Positions 1 to 63,511 of a stretch of 64,000 nucleotides of DNA are shown one piece after another. The DNA comes from Dictyostelium discoideum (lineage: Eukaryota). The DNA lies in the NCBI GenBank assembly GCA_000004695.1, contig CM000155.2:3328001-3392000 (forward strand). Direction: 5' to 3'. How positions within the stretch are numbered: the stretch's first letter is position 1; each line of letters opens with the position of its first letter. The translations under genes and the position numbers were made by a program. Under the pieces are notes generated by a model. The model had not been told where the DNA came from, did not search any database, and saw nothing but the letters and a program-made list of their open reading frames with translations.

Positions 1-2177
1 CAAAAAGATTTGTTGAATTCTATCAAGATCAATATGAAGAGAAAGAAGATAACGAAGAAACCCACAAGAAGTTATTAGAAAAATGGGAAGTAGACGTTGA
101 TTTAATCAAGAAACTCGAGATAGACAGACCGATAAGAATACATGAAGTGACCAAAGCAATCAAAACTTCAAGTATCCACAAATCTCCAGGTTTAGACGGT
201 ATCAATGCACTATTCTACAAGTACCACATCAACTCAATAGCAAGAATATTGACTATAGCTTTCAACGACCTCCTCACAAATAAGAAAGAAATCCCCACAA
301 AATTCAAAGAAGGAGTAATAACAACAATATTCAAAAAAGGAGATGAACTAAACATTTCAAATAGAAGACCAATCACCCTTCTCAATACAGATTACAAAAT
401 TTTAAGCAAAATTCTCAACAGTAGATTATTAGATATCACCAGTAAAATTATCAACAAATTTCAAAACGGCTTTGTTCCAAACAGGTTCATCCAAGACAAT
501 ATTCAGATCATGAAGGAAGTAATAGAAATAAGTAACAAAAGAAAGAACAATACACTCATTACCTTTTACGATTTTAACAAAGCATTCGATTCAATCAGCC
601 ACAAGAGTATCACAAGAACATTAGAGCATATTGGTATCCCCCCAAAATTCACAGCGATCCTACTAAACCTACTCAAAGATACTAAAAACAAAATAAAGAT
701 CAACGACTTTTTAGTCAATGGAATAACAATCAGAAGAGGAACAAAACAAGGAGACCCAATATCACCAACAATCTTTGCTCTAGTTTTAGAACCACTTCTA
801 ATAGATATCATCAATGATAATACAATCAAAGGCTTCACTCTACCAAATTCCAAATCATTAAAACTCACTGCATTTGCTGACGACATAGCAACATTTACAA
901 ACTCCACNGAAGAACTAATGAAAATTAATACTAAAATCCAAAAGTACTGCTCAGCAACATCATCATCGTTAAACAAAGAGAAAACAGTAATGATAGCAAT
1001 AGGAGATAAACCACACGATCTACCATTCCAAGAGAGTACAGTCCCAGAAAGATATCTTGGCCTCAATTTCACCAAAACAGGTTTAAATTCAAAATACAAC
1101 ACTTTAATCCAAGAAATGAAAAACAATCTAATCAAATGGAAATCACAAGCAATAACGATGAAGGCAAAGATGACAATTCTCAAAACATACGTTCTATCCA
1201 AATTAACATACCATCAATACATGGATAATCTAAATGAAGAACAAATTGAGGAAATCAATAACATGACCAGATGGTTCTTATTCTCCTCAGTTAAGAATAC
1301 ATATACAGAAGAGAGAAAATACAAAACTATGATGAAAATAGACAGAGCATATGCAGATTGGAAAGAAGGAGGCATAAAATTATGGGATATAGAACTAAGA
1401 CATATAGCATTCAAAATCTGGTACATGAACAGGCTACTCCATAACAACTACAACAACAACAACAATACCTTACAAGAATGGTACATGGAGCAATTAAGTA
1501 GAAAAAAAGCCCACACTTCAACCCTCAACGATATGTGCAGACACTGGGGTGTATTCAGAGTCAAATTTTACCAAAACCATCCAAAGATAAATGAACTTCC
1601 AGACTGTATAAGAAACGACAATGACGAACCACTAAAACTAAAAGAAATTTACGAACTCATGATCAAAGACAGACACCCAACACCAAGAAGAACAGAATGG
1701 CAGAAGTTATGGGCGGTGAGATACAACACAGCAATACCCAAAGTATTCATAAACATCAACAGCATTTCTCACCAAAAAGGTAGAAACACCCTCTTCAGAT
1801 TCTTCTCAAGATCACTTCCAGGTATCAACCACGAAAGAGACACCAGATGCAAGATCTGTGGCCACCTATTCAGAGACCCTTATTCTCACCTCTTCACTCT
1901 ATGCCAAGATATCCTAGATATTGAAAAAACCATCATATCAACAGTAAACAAATTATCATTCATCAAAATCCACAGATGGTCAATGGATACCTTAGACATA
2001 TCAAAATACAACAGAACTGAGAGAATCTTCCCCAATCTCATAGGAATAATAGCACACCAAAAGAGGAATTTGAGAGGAAATATTAAGGAAATGGAGGAAA
2101 TTAAAATTTTTCCTCTTATTCCTTCGTTTCCACGAATTCCTCTAAAAATTTCTTATAATGTACGGATAACCTTGTAG
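1..2177 (+). CDS. Non-LTR (LINE/TRE-type) retrotransposon ORF2, reverse-transcriptase domain plus C-terminal Cys/His motif. The 5' part (endonuclease) lies left of the window.
   Basis: RT motifs are visible in the translation: FYDFNKAFDSISH, KQGDPISPTIFALVLEPL and TAFADDIATF (an FADD variant of YXDD). The C-terminus has CKICGH...HLFTLC. The frame is open from base 3 with no stop, so the CDS is 5'-partial. Codon usage is less AT-biased than the host genes. There is an ambiguous n at 908. Confidence 0.85.
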   Translation, partial: KRFVEFYQDQYEEKEDNEETHKKLLEKWEVDVDLIKKLEIDRPIRIHEVTKAIKTSSIHKSPGLDGINALFYKYHINSIARILTIAFNDLLTNKKEIPTKFKEGVITTIFKKGDELNISNRRPITLLNTDYKILSKILNSRLLDITSKIINKFQNGFVPNRFIQDNIQIMKEVIEISNKRKNNTLITFYDFNKAFDSISHKSITRTLEHIGIPPKFTAILLNLLKDTKNKIKINDFLVNGITIRRGTKQGDPISPTIFALVLEPLLIDIINDNTIKGFTLPNSKSLKLTAFADDIATFTNSXEELMKINTKIQKYCSATSSSLNKEKTVMIAIGDKPHDLPFQESTVPERYLGLNFTKTGLNSKYNTLIQEMKNNLIKWKSQAITMKAKMTILKTYVLSKLTYHQYMDNLNEEQIEEINNMTRWFLFSSVKNTYTEERKYKTMMKIDRAYADWKEGGIKLWDIELRHIAFKIWYMNRLLHNNYNNNNNTLQEWYMEQLSRKKAHTSTLNDMCRHWGVFRVKFYQNHPKINELPDCIRNDNDEPLKLKEIYELMIKDRHPTPRRTEWQKLWAVRYNTAIPKVFININSISHQKGRNTLFRFFSRSLPGINHERDTRCKICGHLFRDPYSHLFTLCQDILDIEKTIISTVNKLSFIKIHRWSMDTLDISKYNRTERIFPNLIGIIAHQKRNLRGNIKEMEEIKIFPLIPSFPRIPLKISYNVRITL

Positions 2178-26294: not shown

Positions 26295-26660
26295 GATAAC
26301 TATCGTTTAAAATTAAAGCTGGTGTAGTTGGTATTCCAATGATTGTATTAATTTGTTGTTGTTATTGTTGTTGTAATGGTGGTGGATTTACATATTGCTG
26401 TGCATTTGATGGTGTTGGTGGTGGTGGTGGATTTACATATTGTTGTACATTTGGTAGTGAAGTTCTAGTACCAGCAGCATTTAGATTGGTTGGTGCAGTA
26501 TGATGAATTAATTGCAATTGTTGATGATGGTGTATTAGTTGAATTTGTATTAGAATCTGTTGTTGCTATTGTTTATTTGTTGCTTTATAAGCAGCAACAG
26601 CTGTTGTTACTGTAGTTGGTATTTCATTTGGTGTTCCAATAACTTTATTAATTTGCTGTT
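26295..26660 (-). pseudogene. Inverted, degenerate partial duplicate of the med8 coding region (corresponds to about 18880-19160), with an internal about 40-bp duplication and in-frame stops.
   Basis: The reverse complement of 18880-19100 (ggtgtggttggtattgtatttggtgttccaatgactgtattaatttgttgttgctgttg...ggtgaagttctagtaccagcagcatttagattggttgg) is recognisable at 26300-26530. By eye identity is about 85-90%. A second overlapping block 26570-26650 matches the reverse complement of 19075-19160. Confidence 0.6.
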
Positions 26661-27347
26661 GTGTTTAGTGAAATAAATTGTGGTATATAAATGTCAATTA
26701 ATAATGCTATTATAATTATTGCAAAAAAAAAAAAAAAAAAAAAGTTTATTTGTTAATTGAATAAATTGATTATTTTTATTATTATAATAAATATTATTAT
26801 TATTTATTATTATTAAAGTTATTCATTTTTGATTCCATATGGCAGTATTTTTTTTTTTTTTTTTTTTATTTGATTGGTTTTTTTTTTTTTTTTTTTAATT
26901 ATAAATTAGGTTGAATATTTTTATTTTTTTATTTTTAAAAAATAATTTATGACAAAACTGTCATTTTCCGAGCTATTTAATGATTTATGGGTGAATGGTT
27001 TCGAAAAATAACGGATCACCTGGTGGTTTTAAAAATTTAAAATAAAATAAAAAATTTTAAAATAAAAAAAAATAAAAAAAAAAAAAAAAAATATTTTCAT
27101 AATTTTTTATTTTTTTTATTTTTATTTTTATTTTTTTTGAAAAGACACCAACATTGCTTTTTTTTTTTTTTTTTTTTTTTTTTTGGAATAAAGGAAAAAG
27201 AAAAAGAAAAAAAAAAAAAAAAAAAAAAAAACAAAAAAGTTTTTGTGTAATGTAATAATTCATTTTTTTTTTTATATGAATGTAAAATCGAAAAAATATA
27301 AATAATAAATAATAAACAATAATAATAAAAAAAAAAAAAAATACTAA

Positions 27348-29677
27348 ATGGAACAGGTTGTGGAATTCCTTGAAAATTGTGATTTATATCCAAAATTAGA
27401 AGGTAAGATTTTTTTTTTTTTTTTTTCCACCCAAACTTCCAAAAAAAAATTATTTTTATTATTTTTATTATTTTTATTATTTTATTATTTTTAAAAATAG
27501 AATATTGAATGAAAATTAATTAATTAATTTAAAATAATTAGAAAAAAAAAAAAACTCAAGAAATCCATTATCAGGTATTATTACAATTATTTATTTACCA
27601 TTATTAATATTTTATTTATGGTTTAGTATTAGACCACAATATGGAGCGTTACCAAATTGTTGTGCATGTGCTGCTCATTCAACACCAAAAGAATCATGGA
27701 TATATGAAGCGATTAAACCTGAATGTATGAATTCAACAAGTTGTAGAGAGAATGTACAAAAACAACTAACACTGAATTGTGATGCAACTTTACAATATTT
27801 ACCGATACCTGATGTCAATTTGACGATGAATATAGCCGAGATTGGGTGTCTAGGTTTGAAACCGGGTGATTCATGTAATGAAGAGTGTTTAGCGGTATCA
27901 AATCGATGGATAACCAGTCTGGACTACACCAACCAAGACAACCAATACCAGGCTATAATCCGGTGTCCTTTGCAAATTGGTGTATGTGATTTCAAGGCGG
28001 TGTATAGTAACCAAGAGACTGCGCCACATGCGGTGTGCAGGTACCCCGAGCTGAATGGGTTGTTGATTATTTTAGGCTCAGGTTTGTCACTATTAAATGG
28101 ATTTTTAATAACACTTCGAATTATGTTACGTACATTTTGGAGTAGAATAGGAGCGAATAATACAAAGAATGGTCGTATGGGTGATTATTGGAAGGGGGTG
28201 GTGATAGGTGTGGTGTTCAATTATTTTGGCATACTTTACCTCTCGCTAGCAAAGGATATCTCCAAACGTATGAGATATGGTGGTCAACTATCGATTGGGT
28301 TTCTACTACTCTTTTTCAAAAGCCCCCTTGTCATTTACCTAATGGCGGTGTTCTCGTCGTTTTGGACTCCGATGGGGATACTACTAGGTTTAGGATTTAT
28401 CGCAGTTTCAATTATAATTAGAACAGTATTCAATTTGGTTGTATTGGAAATCAGATCTAGAAATTGTGTTGTACTATCACAAGGTTCTATTGAACAATTT
28501 GGTATAATCGGTGAAGATAGTGAAGAGTCAAAGAACGATAACCCATTAAGATACTACCAACAACCCGACCGAATTAAACCAGTCCCTTACACCACATGGA
28601 AAGATTTCTTTAAAGGTTTCTATATGAACCTTTTCGCAATAATCCTACTTCACGGCTTAAAGAAATCCTATAAACGTTATTCAGGTTTAAAAAATGGTTT
28701 CTACGTTTCAATTGGTTGTTCAACTATGATCATAGTTTGGATTTTACTTTGGTCATTAAACGGTTGGGATTACATAACTTATAATTTCCCATTCCCACTA
28801 TTACCAAATTTAAATAAATCAACCACCACTACCACCACCATCATTCCATCATCATCAACATCATCAACATCACCAACGTCATCACCATCACCATCACCAT
28901 CATTATCATCAACATCATCATCATCATCATCATCAATTGAATATGTTGAATCATTAACAACAAATGAGTTAATGAAAATTGCATTTTTACAATCAATTTA
29001 TTATGTGATATCATGGGCAATTGCAATGATGATGGTATTTCATTTTAGTTTATTTTTAAAATATTTACCAGTGAATCAAGGGGTAAACTTTTTTAGATTT
29101 TTAAAAAAGAAACATGGTACTCGTATGGATTATAGATTTGGATTTATCGTGGGAATTATACCAGTGGTTTTAACAAGTTTCTTCTTTTTTTATTTCTTCT
29201 TTTATCCATATGTTGAAGCACCGTTACCATCGAATCCATCATTATGTTCATTCCCAGCTTGGACTTTAATCATACCATGTCTTGGTTTACTACCATCAAT
29301 GTTAATGTTTATATTCTCACCAAGTGAAAGATTTAGGTCAGGTATTATCTCTGCGATTGGAGTTTCAATACTTTTCTTTGGTATGGGATCAACCCTATTA
29401 TTATTAAATTATTGTTTAGGTCCGAATCAAGATAAATTCAATCCATTAGCTTGGTTAATCACTTTATTTGGTTCTTTTATTATAGTTTTTGGTTCAATTC
29501 GTAGTGATACCATTTTAATTTTAGATAAAAAAAAAGAGAATCCAAGATTCATAGAAGAGGAAAGATTATTATCTTCATCAACTCAAATTAAAAATATAAT
29601 TGAAGATTCAATTGATTATAATGAAATTATAATTAATAATGGTAGTCAAAATTATAAAACAATTAATAATTCAATTT

Positions 29678-29743
<66 letters not shown>

Positions 29744-29829
29744 TAAATATAAATATTAATAATAGTAATAATAATAATATACCCGAAGGTATAGCCAATA
29801 ATAAAAATAATTATAATTTTGATGATTAA
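27348..29829 (+). CDS. Multi-pass membrane protein (about 9-11 predicted TM helices) with a Cys-rich N-terminal ectodomain, a Ser/Thr/Pro loop and an Asn-rich C-terminus. Two exons: 27348..27402 and 27542..29829.
   Basis: Exon 1 is MEQVVEFLENCDLYPKLE, then G plus a GTAAGA donor at 27403. The acceptor is AATTAG at 27541, in the correct phase, giving ...E/KKKNSRNPLSGIITIIYLPLLIFYLWF.... The main ORF is 27727-29829. There are numerous hydrophobic 20-23 aa segments. The segment 27730-28600 is markedly GC-richer than the rest, with codons such as GCG, CCG, CGA and CTG. Confidence 0.7.
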
Positions 29830-30254
29830 ATAAAATGTATTTGGTCATTTTAATTATAAATAATTAATTTTTTTTATTTTTTTTTTTTTCAGTTTTATTA
29901 AAAGAATATTGTATTTTTTAAAATAACATCAATTTTAAATCCATGTTTTTATCTGAACAAATCTCGAATAATTAAATTCCTTCATCTAAAAACTTTACAA
30001 TTCATTTAAAATGAAAAAAAAGTAGGAATATGTTTTTTTTTTTATTTTTATTTTGGTATTTTCCAACCAGGATATTGTCTTTTCAAATAATTGAAAATTT
30101 TTTTTTTTTTTTTTTTATTTTTTTTTTTTTTTTTTTAATTTAAAAAAAATGAAAGTATTAAATTGCGAATCAAAACACAAAAAAAAAAAAAAAATAAAAA
30201 ACAATAAAAAAATATAATAATAACAATAATATAAATAATAACAAATGATTTAAA

Positions 30255-30462
30255 ATGTTGTCTGCTTTTAAAAAAAATCTATTAAAACCATCTTCACAAA
30301 CATATATTAAATATAATATCAACAATATTAGTTTAATAAAAAAAAAAATCACTCCGAAAATTAATAAAGATAAAAATGAAAATTATAATAATAATAATAA
30401 TAATAATGTTTTATCATGTACAACTATAAATTCTTCATTAACTACTTCTTTAATAAATAATA

Positions 30463-30493
<31 letters not shown>

Positions 30494-30561
30494 TTGTTTT
30501 ATTAATGGAGGACAAAGACATTTCGGATCATGGGGTTTTAGAGTAATGTATATACATATAT

Positions 30562-36715: not shown

Positions 36716-36815
36716 NNNNNNNNNNNNNNNNNNNNNNNNNNNNNNNNNNNNNNNNNNNNNNNNNNNNNNNNNNNNNNNNNNNNNNNNNNNNNNNNNNNNN
36801 NNNNNNNNNNNNNNN
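36716..36815. other. Assembly gap (100 N)
   Basis: Run of n. Confidence 0.99.
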
Positions 36816-37379
36816 TTTTGGGTGCGAGGGGTGTTGTTGTGTTTTGTTGGTAGGGGGGGTGGTGGGGGTAGTGAGAGGGAGGAGGTGGGGAGAGTGTGGG
36901 GGTGTGGGGTGTATTTTGAGGAGGGGAGGGGAGGTGGGAAAGGTGAGGTTGTTGTGTGGTTGATATGGGTGGGTGGGGTGGGGGGTGGGTGTTGGGAAAG
37001 GTGGTAAGAAAGAGGAATAGTAAGGGGGGATGGAAGGGGTGGGGGGGTTTGGTGGAAGAAGGGGGGGGGAGAGGAATTTTTGGGGTATTTGGATTTAAAA
37101 GAAAGGGGGGGTATGAGTGTATTTTGCGCCAAAGGGGGGGATTTTTGGGGGGGGGGTTATTTCCCCTTTCCCCTTTTAACCCCCTTTTAATTTGGGAAAA
37201 AAAAAAAAAAAAAAAAAAATTTTTTTTGGGGGGTTTTGGGGGAAAAAATTTTAAAATTTTTTTTTAAAAAGGGTTTTTTTAAATTTTTTTTTAAAAAAAA
37301 AGGAAAAAAAAAAAAAAAAAAAAAGGATTTTTTTTTTTGGGGTTTTTGGCAATCCTTAAAAAAATTCCTTTATTTAATA

Positions 37380-48697: not shown

Positions 48698-50105
48698 ATG
48701 GGTAGTCCAACTATTAGTGATCAAGAAAAATCCCAAGTTGCCTTTATAGCAGGTAGTAGTTCTGATATTCATTCAACTACTGTTGCAAGATTGTATGAAG
48801 GTAGACAAGGAAGATGGGAATTTATGGCCGTCGGTATTGTTTCTGTTGTTTCAAATCGTGTAGATAAAACAAATTATATCAAAGTTTTCGATTTAAAGGT
48901 AAGTTATTATTATTATTATCATTATTATTATTTACAATATTAAAACTTTTTTTTTTTAAAAAATTAACATATTAATTTTTTTTTTTTTTTTATTATATTA
49001 TTTTTTTAAAAAAAAAAAAGGCCAACTACAGAATCATTTTTGAACAAGAAATTTATGACACTTTTGAATTTCAAAAACAAAGAGATTTCTTTTTTGCATT
49101 TGAAGGTGATTCCTGTGTTTATGGCTTATCATTTGCTGATGTAACTGAAGCAGCTGAATTCTATGGCCAACTTTTAAATTGTAAACAAGGAAATATTGGT
49201 AAAACTGCTGCAATTAATCCAAATACTTCTTCAACCAGTATGTTTTTAATTATTTTTTAATTTACAATAACAATAATAATAATAAAAATAACCTTATTAA
49301 TAATTTTTTTTTTTTTTAAATAGAAATTACTGCATCAACACCAGCACCAAAAGTTGAAAAGAAAAAAGAAAAGAAAGGTTTTATGTCTAAATTCTTTTCA
49401 TCGGAAGAGAAAGATTTGGAAATTTCAGCTCCAACCAACTTTAAACATGAAAGTCATATTGGTTGGGATCCAGAGAATGGTTTTGATATTAAGAATATCC
49501 CACCAGATTGGAGAAAACTTTTCCAATCTGCTGGTATTAAGAAGAGTGAATTAAAGAATGCAGAAACTGCTCAATTCATTGTCAATATCATTGGTGAACA
49601 AATGGTTGGTGGTTCAGCTCCACCACCAACTCAACCAGGTAGATCAGCTCCACCAGCTCCACCATCTTCAAACCAACCAGGTAGATCAGCTCCACCACCA
49701 CCACCATCTGTTGGTAAAAGTGCTCCACCACCACCACCACCATCCCATAAGACACCTGCAGCTCCACCATCAGGCGGAGGTGCTCCACCACCACCACCAC
49801 CTCCACCACCACCTTCTAGTGGTCCACCACCTCCACCACCACCAATGGCCAGTGCTCCTCCATCATCAGGAGGTGGTGGTGCCAGCGGCGGTGGAAGAAA
49901 TGATCTTTTGGCTTCCATTCGTAGTGGTGCAAGTCTTAAGGCTGTTGATAAAACCAATCCACTCCCAGATATTCAAAGTCTTGGTAATGAAGGTTCACGT
50001 TCTTTAGCTGATACTTTAGCTGCAGCTATGGCTAATCGTAGAGGTGGTATGAGAGAAGATGATGAAGAAGATGATGATGACGATGATGAATGGTCAGATT
50101 ATTAA
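48698..50105 (+). CDS. wasA: WASP (Wiskott-Aldrich syndrome protein) homologue with WH1/EVH1, basic, CRIB/GBD, polyproline, WH2 and acidic domains. Three exons: 48698..48898, 49021..49237 and 49324..50105.
   Basis: The WH1 domain is split by intron 1 (AAG / GTAAGT...AAAAAG / GCC): ...NYIKVFDLK/ANYRIIFEQEIYDTFEFQKQRDFFFAFEGDSCVYGLSFADVTEAAEFYGQLL. Intron 2 is A / GTATGT...AAATAG / AA. The CRIB motif is ISAPTNFKHESHIGWDPENGF. Proline tracts PPPPPPS are present. The WH2 motif is GGRNDLLASIRSGASLKAVDK. The acidic tail is DDEEDDDDDDEWSDY. The spliced length is about 399 aa. Confidence 0.85.
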
Positions 50106-56136: not shown

Positions 56137-56526
56137 TTCACTTAATGTTGATGGTGTTATTGTTTTTTTCTAAGAAAGAGAGTGGTCTTGTGATTGATGG
56201 AGGTGCATGATATCTAATTGATTATCAAGTCCTTTGTTTAGTGAGAGTTGGTTTGTTGGGGTTTGTTTTTTAGGTGTGTCGATTTTTGCACTTTTATTTT
56301 TTGTTGTTGAGGTTGTGGAGGTATTATTTGTATTGGTCGTGTTGTTATCTGTATGATTTAACTGTAATTCAGTTGAGTGATCATCAGCCATTGTTGAAAA
56401 GTATATAGGACGATAGCCCTTGCTTTAATGAGCAAAAAAAGGGTAAAATTAAGAGGAATGAATGTGGCGGTGAAGATATAACAGTGATTTATTTATTATA
56501 TGTATAAATTCTCCACATAAACATTT

Positions 56527-57201
56527 ATGGCCCTAGATGATACAGCTCAAAAGGTAATAGAAGCATCACTAGAAAACGTAGATGAACTAACAAGAATAGA
56601 GAATGAGATCAATACCCAATCGATAAAAAATCAAGAAATTAAAACAAAATCAGAAAAACCTATTGAACCACCATCTCCATACAATACACCAATAAAACAA
56701 CACGGCGAAACAAAGAGACTAACAACGGAAGAAAAACTTAGAGAGGTAAATGATATCTTCGACTTCACCAGCCCAAACACTGATGCAATAAGAAAAATAG
56801 AATTCCCACTTTCAATCCCTTCAAATCAATGGTTCTTCTCCTCTCCAATAAAACATATCATGAGTTTCAGCCCAACCTATGGTACACCATCGAAAATTAT
56901 CGATTCACCAAGTAAATTGTTAAACACACCAAAAAACAAACAACAAGACAAAACAAACAGGACCAACAAAACACCAGTCAAACCAAAATTGGGTGAATAT
57001 GGACAAAAAAGCATAAAAACAAAAATGGATGAAGATATAGACAACTTCAACAAGGAAATTCTAAAACAAATCAATAAATCAAAAAACCCCACAAACACAC
57101 AAGACCAACAACACAACGAACAAAGTAAAGATCAGTTAGAAGACAAAATAAACCAGAAACTTCAAAAGGTAGATAAAAATCTACCCCAAATAAAACTATA
57201 A
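56527..57201 (+). CDS. TRE5-type retrotransposon ORF1 (224 aa)
   Basis: MALDDTAQKVIEASLENVDELTRIENE... has host-atypical codon usage. It is immediately followed, with a -1 frame overlap, by the endonuclease ORF. The assignment is by context, not by homology. Confidence 0.6.
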   Translation: MALDDTAQKVIEASLENVDELTRIENEINTQSIKNQEIKTKSEKPIEPPSPYNTPIKQHGETKRLTTEEKLREVNDIFDFTSPNTDAIRKIEFPLSIPSNQWFFSSPIKHIMSFSPTYGTPSKIIDSPSKLLNTPKNKQQDKTNRTNKTPVKPKLGEYGQKSIKTKMDEDIDNFNKEILKQINKSKNPTNTQDQQHNEQSKDQLEDKINQKLQKVDKNLPQIKL

Positions 57202-59584: not shown

Positions 59585-59658
59585 GCCTTAGTAGCTCAGT
59601 TGGTACGAGCGTGAGACTGAAGATCTTAAGGTCGCTGGTTCGATCCCGGCCTGAGGCA
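59585..59658 (+). tRNA. tRNA-Phe (anticodon GAA)
   Basis: GCCTTAG-TA-GCTC-AGTTGGTAC-GAGC-G-TGAGA-CTGAAGA-TCTTA-AGGTC-GCTGG-TTCGATC-CCGGC-CTGAGGC-A. The acceptor stem is 7 bp, D-stem 4 bp, anticodon stem 5 bp (one G-U) and T-stem 5 bp. The A box is TAGCTCAGTTGG and the B box is GGTTCGATCCC. The anticodon loop CTGAAGA closely matches yeast tRNA-Phe. Confidence 0.95.

Positions 59659-61681: not shown

Positions 61682-63511
<1,830 letters not shown>

Follow-up and report, generated by a model that had tools for sequence, protein, structure and literature searches.

A synonymous GC-rich island at intron positions of a membrane-protein gene in the Dictyostelium discoideum lineage

The stretch of DNA analyzed here, which we call the window, comprises 64,000 nucleotides of Dictyostelium discoideum (GenBank assembly GCA_000004695.1, contig CM000155.2, positions 3,328,001 to 3,392,000 of the forward strand) and has a GC content of 21.7%. 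All coordinates below are positions within the window unless another locus is named. Between 27348 and 29829 it houses a two-exon gene for a multi-pass membrane protein, and the second exon contains a synonymous GC island, a block of coding sequence whose silent positions are far richer in G and C than those of the surrounding genes. The features of the gene, and the positions at which its orthologues carry introns, are collected in Table 1. The exon and intron boundaries rest on the orthologue model, in which the spliced coding sequence translates free of stops and the N-terminus agrees with those of the proteins P0001 and P0002.

Table 1. Features of the membrane-protein gene, its GC island and the homologous intron positions
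Feature	Position	Strand	Basis or remark
Exon 1 of the multi-pass membrane-protein gene (MEQVVEFLENCDLYPKLE and the opening base of the codon that follows)	27348..27402	+	55 bp
Intron 1	27403..27541	+	GT..AG, 139 nt, phase 1, ~13% GC
Exon 2	27542..29829	+	stop codon 29827-29829
Ancestral intron A, homologous codon, phase 2	27784..27786	+	exact spliced mapping
Core synonymous GC island	27802..28437	+	codon usage, change-point fit, orthologue comparison
Ancestral intron B, homologous codon, phase 2	28018..28020	+	exact spliced mapping; at the GC3 peak
Segment homologous to the 55-nt D. purpureum micro-exon	28057..28113	+	spliced mapping
Ancestral intron C, codon after its position, phase 0	28321..28323	+	exact spliced mapping
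Milder C3-rich shoulder, G3 low	28513..28842	+	GC3 0.25-0.42
AT-rich rest of exon 2	28843..29826	+	ordinary codon usage, GC3 ~0.13-0.16

In order, the product of exon 2 consists of a Cys-rich ectodomain, transmembrane helices, a Ser/Thr-rich linker, more transmembrane helices and a poly-Asn tail. No Pfam domain was found in the encoded protein, and its AlphaFold model is too poor for use, with a mean predicted local distance difference test (pLDDT) score of 40.7. A word-index search returned nine homologues, dictyostelid without exception, and a full hidden Markov model scan of 1.84 billion representative proteins returned only 28 relatives, among which all those with a name or a traceable genome are dictyostelid. 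A scan of metagenome contigs yielded no relatives.

The top match, P0001, is ~98% identical and comes from an assembly labelled D. discoideum (GCA_054859355.1). Its locus, L001, is syntenic with the window but lies ~3-5% substitutions plus indels apart; between 21237 and 35994, many of the indels fall in intergenic DNA. L001 therefore belongs to a sister lineage and not to the same strain; the divergence is far above ordinary D. discoideum strain diversity and suggests a cryptic sister species. Several diverged or cryptic “D. discoideum” isolates have been described (Holland et al., 2025; PMC12745789). We also compared the orthologous loci of D. purpureum (L002), P. violaceum (L003), T. lacteum, C. 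fasciculata (L005), A. subglobosum (L006) and H. album (L007), mapping each residue to its codon. Intron 1 is common to the window, the sister lineage and D. purpureum.

The GC content of third codon positions (GC3), taken over 50 codons at a time, climbs from 0.06-0.12 at 27538-27762 to 0.40-0.60 at 27838-28437, with peaks of 0.60-0.65. On the 3′ side of this core it dips to 0.20-0.24, returns to 0.42 at 28513-28662 and falls to 0.00-0.24 past ~28850. A likelihood fit with two change points draws a single block at 27802-28842, with a GC3 of 0.37 vs 0.13 outside it and a log-likelihood gain of 32. D. purpureum and other orthologues have a similar GC3 in the shoulder that forms the 3′ end of this block, and the real lineage-specific anomaly is therefore the core at 27802-28437. 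Over 27838-28437 the core has a GC3 of 0.41, divided into 0.26 for G (G3) and 0.15 for C (C3), and its observed-to-expected ratio for the CpG dinucleotide is 0.83, compared with 0.31 in background coding sequence. The GC skew is positive, at 0.1-0.38, over 27700-28300.

As background we used the 22 other long open reading frames (ORFs) of the window (9,516 codons), which individually have a GC3 of 0.06-0.30. Their 200-codon segments have a mean GC3 of 0.131 (standard deviation 0.064, maximum 0.355) and a G3 of at most 0.145; none reaches the core in GC3 or G3, and the core GC3 corresponds to a z-score of 4.3. Codon identity tells the same story. Rare codons, defined as those with a background frequency below 3 per 1000, account for 40 of the 200 island codons, 2.6% of the background and 13 of 363 codons in the 3′ part of exon 2, with GCG writing six of nine Ala, GTG seven of 12 Val, GGG five of 20 Gly and TCG four of 14 Ser residues of the island. 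The mean log2 synonymous frequency is -2.41 in the island vs -1.04 in the rest of the gene. Two sequence details of the island may be mentioned here. The hexamer GCGGTG writes all three of its Ala-Val dipeptides (27996-28001, 28030-28035 and 28345-28350), and a G/T-rich run, GGGGGTGGTGATAGGTGTGGTG, lies at 28193-28214 and is identical in L001, an identity that is not beyond chance. We take this run to resemble the G-box or CA-element motifs of Dictyostelium promoters.

The first-pass annotation had pointed to a GC-rich, rare-codon anomaly in exon 2, quoting a 69-mer that sits at 27863-27931, and the GC3 profile, the change-point fit and the rare-codon counts show that the anomaly is real. The use of rare codons that it described is borne out, with 20% of island codons among the rarest of the window, as is the reversion to AT-rich usage in the 3′ half of the exon. 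Its figure of ~45% GC over 27730-28600 was too high: the interval is enriched, but to 39.3%, and 43-50% is attained only in segments of 150-300 bp between 27800 and 28100. Its single island of ~870 bp contains the core, but merges it with the distinct shoulder that orthologues share. The contrast that it drew with neighbouring exons has no proper partner, as the only other exon is 55 bp long, but holds against the fair comparison, which is with the rest of exon 2 and with other genes.

The shift in composition is entirely synonymous, and lies at third positions plus the synonymous first positions of Leu (TTR to CTN) and Arg (AGR to CGN). This follows from second positions (GC2), with a GC content of 0.38 in the window and 0.39 in D. 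purpureum, and from first positions (GC1) outside Leu and Arg codons, at 0.41 and 0.40, which are unchanged. The ratio of CTN to TTR codons for Leu is 16/8 in the window island vs 0/19 in D. purpureum, and that of CGN to AGR codons for Arg is 6/4 vs 1/8. The codon CTA accounts for nine of 28 Leu residues in the island, where GC is gained at the first position and the third position stays A; this indicates pressure on base composition, not the choice of particular codons or tRNAs. The enrichment thus runs from A/T to G/C regardless of codon preference, at third and synonymous first positions alike, raising the rarest codons and not avoiding CpG, the last of these being expected from undirected A/T-to-G/C change. 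At four-fold degenerate sites, the window island has G in 27 codons (0.31) and C in 10 (0.11), and the L001 island has G in 32 (0.37) and C in 12. Four-fold G is 0.05-0.10 in the other species examined, and C in the island stays at ~0.11.

The island is confined to the D. discoideum lineage, being present in the window, stronger in L001 and absent from the six other dictyostelids. At the island alignment columns, the window has a GC3 of 0.42 and L001 one of 0.50, the stronger L001 island being also scored at 0.54-0.64, compared with 0.23 in D. purpureum, 0.23 in P. violaceum, 0.29 in T. lacteum, 0.19 in C. fasciculata, 0.39 in A. subglobosum and 0.30 in H. album. The values of A. subglobosum and H. 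album are below their own gene averages. Orthologues outside the D. discoideum complex therefore do not share the composition.

The protein segment itself has descended vertically. In every segment, the closest relative of the window outside its own complex is D. purpureum, and the two are paired with 93% bootstrap support in a neighbour-joining tree built from the 200 island residues. The window branch is not lengthened in the island segment. A blastn search of the island DNA against E. coli genomes and plasmids gave no match. A foreign origin is not supported, as the phylogeny is without conflict and the named or traceable homologues are all dictyostelid; nor is the acquisition from a GC-richer source proposed in the first-pass annotation, given these homologues, the grouping with D. 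purpureum and a shift in synonymous sites only.

Comparison of the window with L001 shows how the island changes. In 200 island codons there are 24 synonymous differences and one non-synonymous difference, compared with 15 synonymous and 13 non-synonymous differences in 355 codons of the 3′ part; the island is thus the most conserved part of the protein. Its third positions diverge by 12%, vs 5.6% in 2,623 background codons. The raised synonymous divergence follows from the higher count of mutable G/C sites, in an AT-biased genome, and the share of G/C-containing third positions that differ is 0.22 in the island vs 0.26 in the background. The G/C sites of the island are therefore unconstrained, and are lost and replaced as fast as elsewhere, which speaks against the unusual selective constraint that had been suggested for the segment. 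By our estimate, the longest substitution-free stretch of the island (71 bp) is about what chance would give. The differences also have a direction: 18-19 island sites have A/T in the window and G/C in L001, and 4-5 have the reverse (binomial p = 0.007), while the counts outside the island are 188 and 168, all of these counts being unpolarised. At least one lineage is therefore out of equilibrium, with the window island eroding, the L001 island growing, or both.

The island also coincides with intron positions. Five positions at which orthologues carry introns lie at or inside it and span 27784-28321, nearly the whole core, and all five are empty in the window and in L001, with the reading frame intact. 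P. violaceum, C. fasciculata, A. subglobosum and H. album all carry ancestral introns A and B, and the last three of these species also carry intron C; the window has none of the three introns. The codon of intron A is 16-18 bp upstream of the 5′ edge of the island. The other two positions are occupied in D. purpureum only, where the introns flank a micro-exon (phase 1 at codon 28057 and phase 2 at codon 28111), and are likewise empty in the window. In D. purpureum these two introns are at L002 6386-6467 and 6523-6596 and are found in no other dictyostelid examined, and the micro-exon lies 13 codons downstream of the position of intron B, which D. purpureum has itself lost. Within 30 codons of the homologous intron sites, the GC3 of the window is 0.38 vs 0.19 elsewhere in the gene. 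In the four relatives that keep ancestral introns, the values near introns and in the rest of the gene are 0.14 and 0.24, 0.14 and 0.33, 0.34 and 0.52, and 0.30 and 0.47; these contrasts come from one gene with spatial autocorrelation and are descriptive only. In L001, GC3 is 0.08 within 30 codons of the retained intron 1. C. fasciculata has a GC3 of 0.06-0.10 over alignment columns 76-200 vs 0.45-0.58 in its intron-free 3′ half.

The best-supported reading of these observations is that the island is a by-product of repair or recombination history, and not a functional element. As to its cause, a lineage-specific GC-biased substitution process tied to recombination, repair or conversion by complementary DNA (cDNA) is the account that we tentatively favour, with a likelihood that we judge to be a little short of even. 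The base composition, its distribution among lineages, the vertical descent, the absence of constraint and the overlap with intron positions are observed directly, and from these patterns we infer both the mechanism of biased conversion and its link to intron loss. On the branch leading to the D. discoideum complex, once D. purpureum had diverged, a stretch of ~600 bp would have fixed an excess of A/T-to-G/C changes, most likely because repair at a local hot spot of recombination or gene conversion was GC-biased. An event of the same kind, in which the gene recombined with its spliced cDNA or RNA, would have removed introns, so that the island would come to sit on the intron-losing part of the gene. 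Later, with its G/C sites unprotected, the island would erode in the window lineage under a strong AT mutation bias, while the sister lineage may have kept its GC or may still be gaining it. There is a precedent in the same organisms: in D. discoideum and D. purpureum, the exon flanks of lost introns are significantly GC-richer than the flanks of conserved introns or the orthologous intron-bearing sites, which Ma et al. 2015 (Ma, Che, Porceddu and Niu, BMC Evol Biol) read as cDNA gene conversion or conversion hot spots (PMC4683709). Gene conversion, which the first-pass annotation had also named, thus remains the leading candidate in the broad sense of GC-biased repair or recombination, but not in the sense of conversion from a GC-richer donor.

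Several points weigh against this account. D. purpureum lacks introns A to C as well and yet has no island, and the intron-less T. lacteum is without one too. The loss of introns is therefore not enough to produce an island, and the losses of introns A to C are not demonstrably confined to D. discoideum. The two introns peculiar to D. purpureum are most parsimoniously explained as gained there and not as lost in the window. At four-fold sites, G is enriched and C is not (27 vs 10, binomial p ~0.007), an excess that a strand-symmetric conversion bias does not predict, although adding the first-position C gains of Leu and Arg brings the totals by our arithmetic to roughly +41 G vs +31 C, an asymmetry that is modest overall. 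The island holds no non-coding DNA that could show a bias independent of coding, and the changes between the window and L001 are unpolarised. Finally, a survey of the whole D. discoideum genome detected no GC-biased gene conversion: at a resolution of 5 kb windows, GC content was even outside transposon clusters and unrelated to recombination rate, and the frequency spectrum of single-nucleotide polymorphisms was not skewed (PMC8321536).

The four-fold asymmetry and the intron coincidence are also what give selection on the GC or G content of the mRNA or DNA its appeal. Recoding of this long AT-rich stretch with G/C-rich synonymous codons after intron loss could keep expression up, through nuclear export, stability or the avoidance of cryptic A/T-rich signals, or could install a cis element rich in G and T. 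The answer of D. purpureum to the same problem would have been two new introns at that place, and its two unique introns do lie exactly where the island covers the intron-losing region of the gene. The GC3 of relatives has troughs beside retained introns, and the enrichment of four-fold G on the sense strand, together with G/T-rich motifs such as the threefold GCGGTG and the run at 28193-28214, is strand-specific in a way that mutational bias does not predict. GC-rich coding sequence can reportedly replace splicing in mRNA export in human cells (Mordstein et al. 2020). The comparison with L001 argues the other way, as the conservation of G/C sites in the island does not exceed that of G/C third positions outside it, its longest unchanged stretch is unremarkable, and the directional difference between the sisters puts at least one lineage off the selected equilibrium. 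In addition, T. lacteum does without introns and without such recoding, and the maintenance of ~80 individually near-neutral sites would demand very efficient selection; we consider this explanation unlikely, but worth keeping in view. Strand-asymmetric mutation without conversion bias, for example from error-prone patch repair or from transcription or R-loop damage on a G-rich non-template strand that raises A-to-G (and T-to-C) change, would account for the excess of G over C in both islands, for the positive GC skew and for the raised synonymous divergence. The divergence is, however, fully explained by the higher count of mutable G/C sites, and first-position T-to-C change in Leu is also common (CTN in 16 of 24-28 Leu codons), such that both strands are affected. 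We know of no process that would keep such mutagenesis within 600 bp of a single gene for long, and we regard this explanation as rather doubtful. A single burst, such as an edited or error-laden cDNA, was also considered and rejected: ~80 changes with essentially no amino-acid change are by reasoning incompatible with one unfiltered event.

The remaining explanations place the origin of the island in other DNA or its maintenance in another function. A replacement of the segment, through homologous recombination, by DNA or cDNA of a close group-4 relative that is unsampled, GC-richer and intron-less would fit the fairly sharp boundaries, the abrupt change of composition and the absence of several introns from the same tract, as well as the similarity of the island to P. 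violaceum (72%), which about equals that to D. purpureum (73%), unlike in other segments. Such a mosaic origin seems improbable to us, as the island protein groups with D. purpureum on a branch that is not lengthened, the composition differs at synonymous sites only, and the named or traceable homologues are all dictyostelid, with no match to E. coli genome or plasmid DNA. All sequenced group-4 genomes have 22-24.5% GC (table in PMC12745789), which leaves no known plausible donor. In AT-rich genomes, patches of high GC often mark RNA genes, and an embedded structured RNA, antisense transcript or overlapping frame, the first two of which were proposed in the first-pass annotation, could in principle constrain synonymous sites. 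There is no Rfam match at E-values up to 1 in 26500-30500 and nothing at the gathering score in the whole window except one tRNA. Folding z-scores in 150-nt sliding windows on both strands, against dinucleotide shuffles, are an ordinary -2.05 to +1.73 across the island, and the only repeats are low-complexity families, all outside it. Synonymous sites diverge faster rather than slower. An alternative-frame ORF of 77 codons at 28188-28421 was rejected as a candidate, with nine substitutions between the window and L001 causing eight amino-acid changes, and the other frames are full of stops; an embedded element is largely refuted and very improbable. Least probable of all is translational selection, whether as the bias of a highly expressed gene or as selection for accuracy. 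The island does coincide with the most conserved part of the protein, but this explanation is refuted by the identity of the codons, since those enriched (GCG, CCG, GGG, TCG, CGA and CTG) are the rarest, and G3 exceeds C3 in the island whereas the probable highly expressed ORF at 56521-57198 is C3-rich (C3 0.20, G3 0.08). The island codons are thus not those of highly expressed genes. The published preferred codons of D. discoideum are not GC-rich (PMC8321536), and the bias is missing from orthologues whose conserved residues are the same.

Set beside known systems, the locus is a single case of a published statistical pattern, to which it adds evidence from a sister lineage on constraint and direction, and not a new kind of element. 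It shares with the observations of Ma et al. the organism, the GC-rich exon at missing introns, the excess over orthologous intron-bearing sequence and the synonymous sites (PMC4683709). Their effect is a statistical shift in 100-bp flanks across hundreds of genes, whereas here a single block of ~600 bp covers five discordant intron positions, and the comparison with a sister lineage, which reveals absence of constraint and directional erosion, is particular to the present case. The excess of four-fold G over C is not described in that study. The GC-biased conversion tracts of mammals, birds and yeast are similar as lineage-specific, kilobase-scale bursts of A/T-to-G/C change that ignore codon optimality and decay after the driver stops, but the present tract belongs to an organism reported to be without detectable bias (PMC8321536) and has unequal four-fold G and C. 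Horizontally acquired compositional islands likewise show an abrupt local break from the codon usage of the genome; in contrast to these, the protein segment here is vertically inherited, dictyostelid-specific and atypical at synonymous sites only. The GC-rich composition reported for intron-less genes and retrogenes, as compensation for the missing splicing (Mordstein et al. 2020), pairs intron loss with raised synonymous GC in one stretch, as here, but in human cells and over whole genes, whereas the island is a sub-genic patch in an amoeba whose G/C sites have no sign of purifying selection.

A more speculative possibility, to which we give a slim chance, is that one process made both the island and the missing introns. 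A site prone to R-loops and breaks might have been repaired again and again from its own spliced transcript or cDNA, which would have deleted the introns and left a sense-strand G-rich signature. In a variant based on selection, GC recoding in D. discoideum and new introns at the same spot in D. purpureum might be alternative forms of compensation for intron loss. If the latter is true, GC content could stand in for introns, and introns for GC content, in the gene expression of an extremely AT-rich protist. D. discoideum is used as a eukaryote free of GC-biased conversion in order to separate selection from neutral forces in codon usage, and an unconstrained GC island of one lineage in a single-copy conserved gene would be a local exception missed by tests at the 5-kb scale. 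The cluster of intron positions and the stronger island in the sister lineage make a link between intron loss, cDNA recombination and biased repair testable in genomes of the clade of D. discoideum, D. citrinum, D. intermedium and D. firmibasis. If the island is only the decaying footprint of conversion, it would be a clear textbook example with no new principle.

Other GC3 or GC peaks of the window were considered as analogues of the island, and none is comparable. On the minus strand at 62480-62700, a poly-Asn tract written nearly entirely with AAC reaches a GC3 of 0.62-0.66 locally, which is due to the repeat and has nothing to do with the island. An open frame at 3-2174 (plus strand), which runs off the start of the window, encodes a reverse transcriptase like those of non-LTR retrotransposons and is GC-richer than the host genes, with a GC3 of 0.37 that is mostly C3. 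An assembly gap of 100 N at 36716-36815 is followed by ~270 bp (to 37090) in which C is nearly absent and G, T and A make up almost the whole sequence (GGGGTGGTGGGGG...), and this tract at 36816-37090 is the second-highest GC peak of the window. The ORF at 49320-50102 (plus strand) is WASP-like, with a CRIB-like motif, long poly-proline runs, a WH2-like motif and an acidic tail, and owes its high GC to amino-acid composition and not to codon choice (GC1 0.60, GC2 0.58, GC3 0.15). The single tRNA of the window, tRNA-Phe(GAA) at 59585-59658 (plus strand), is its sole Rfam or ARAGORN match.

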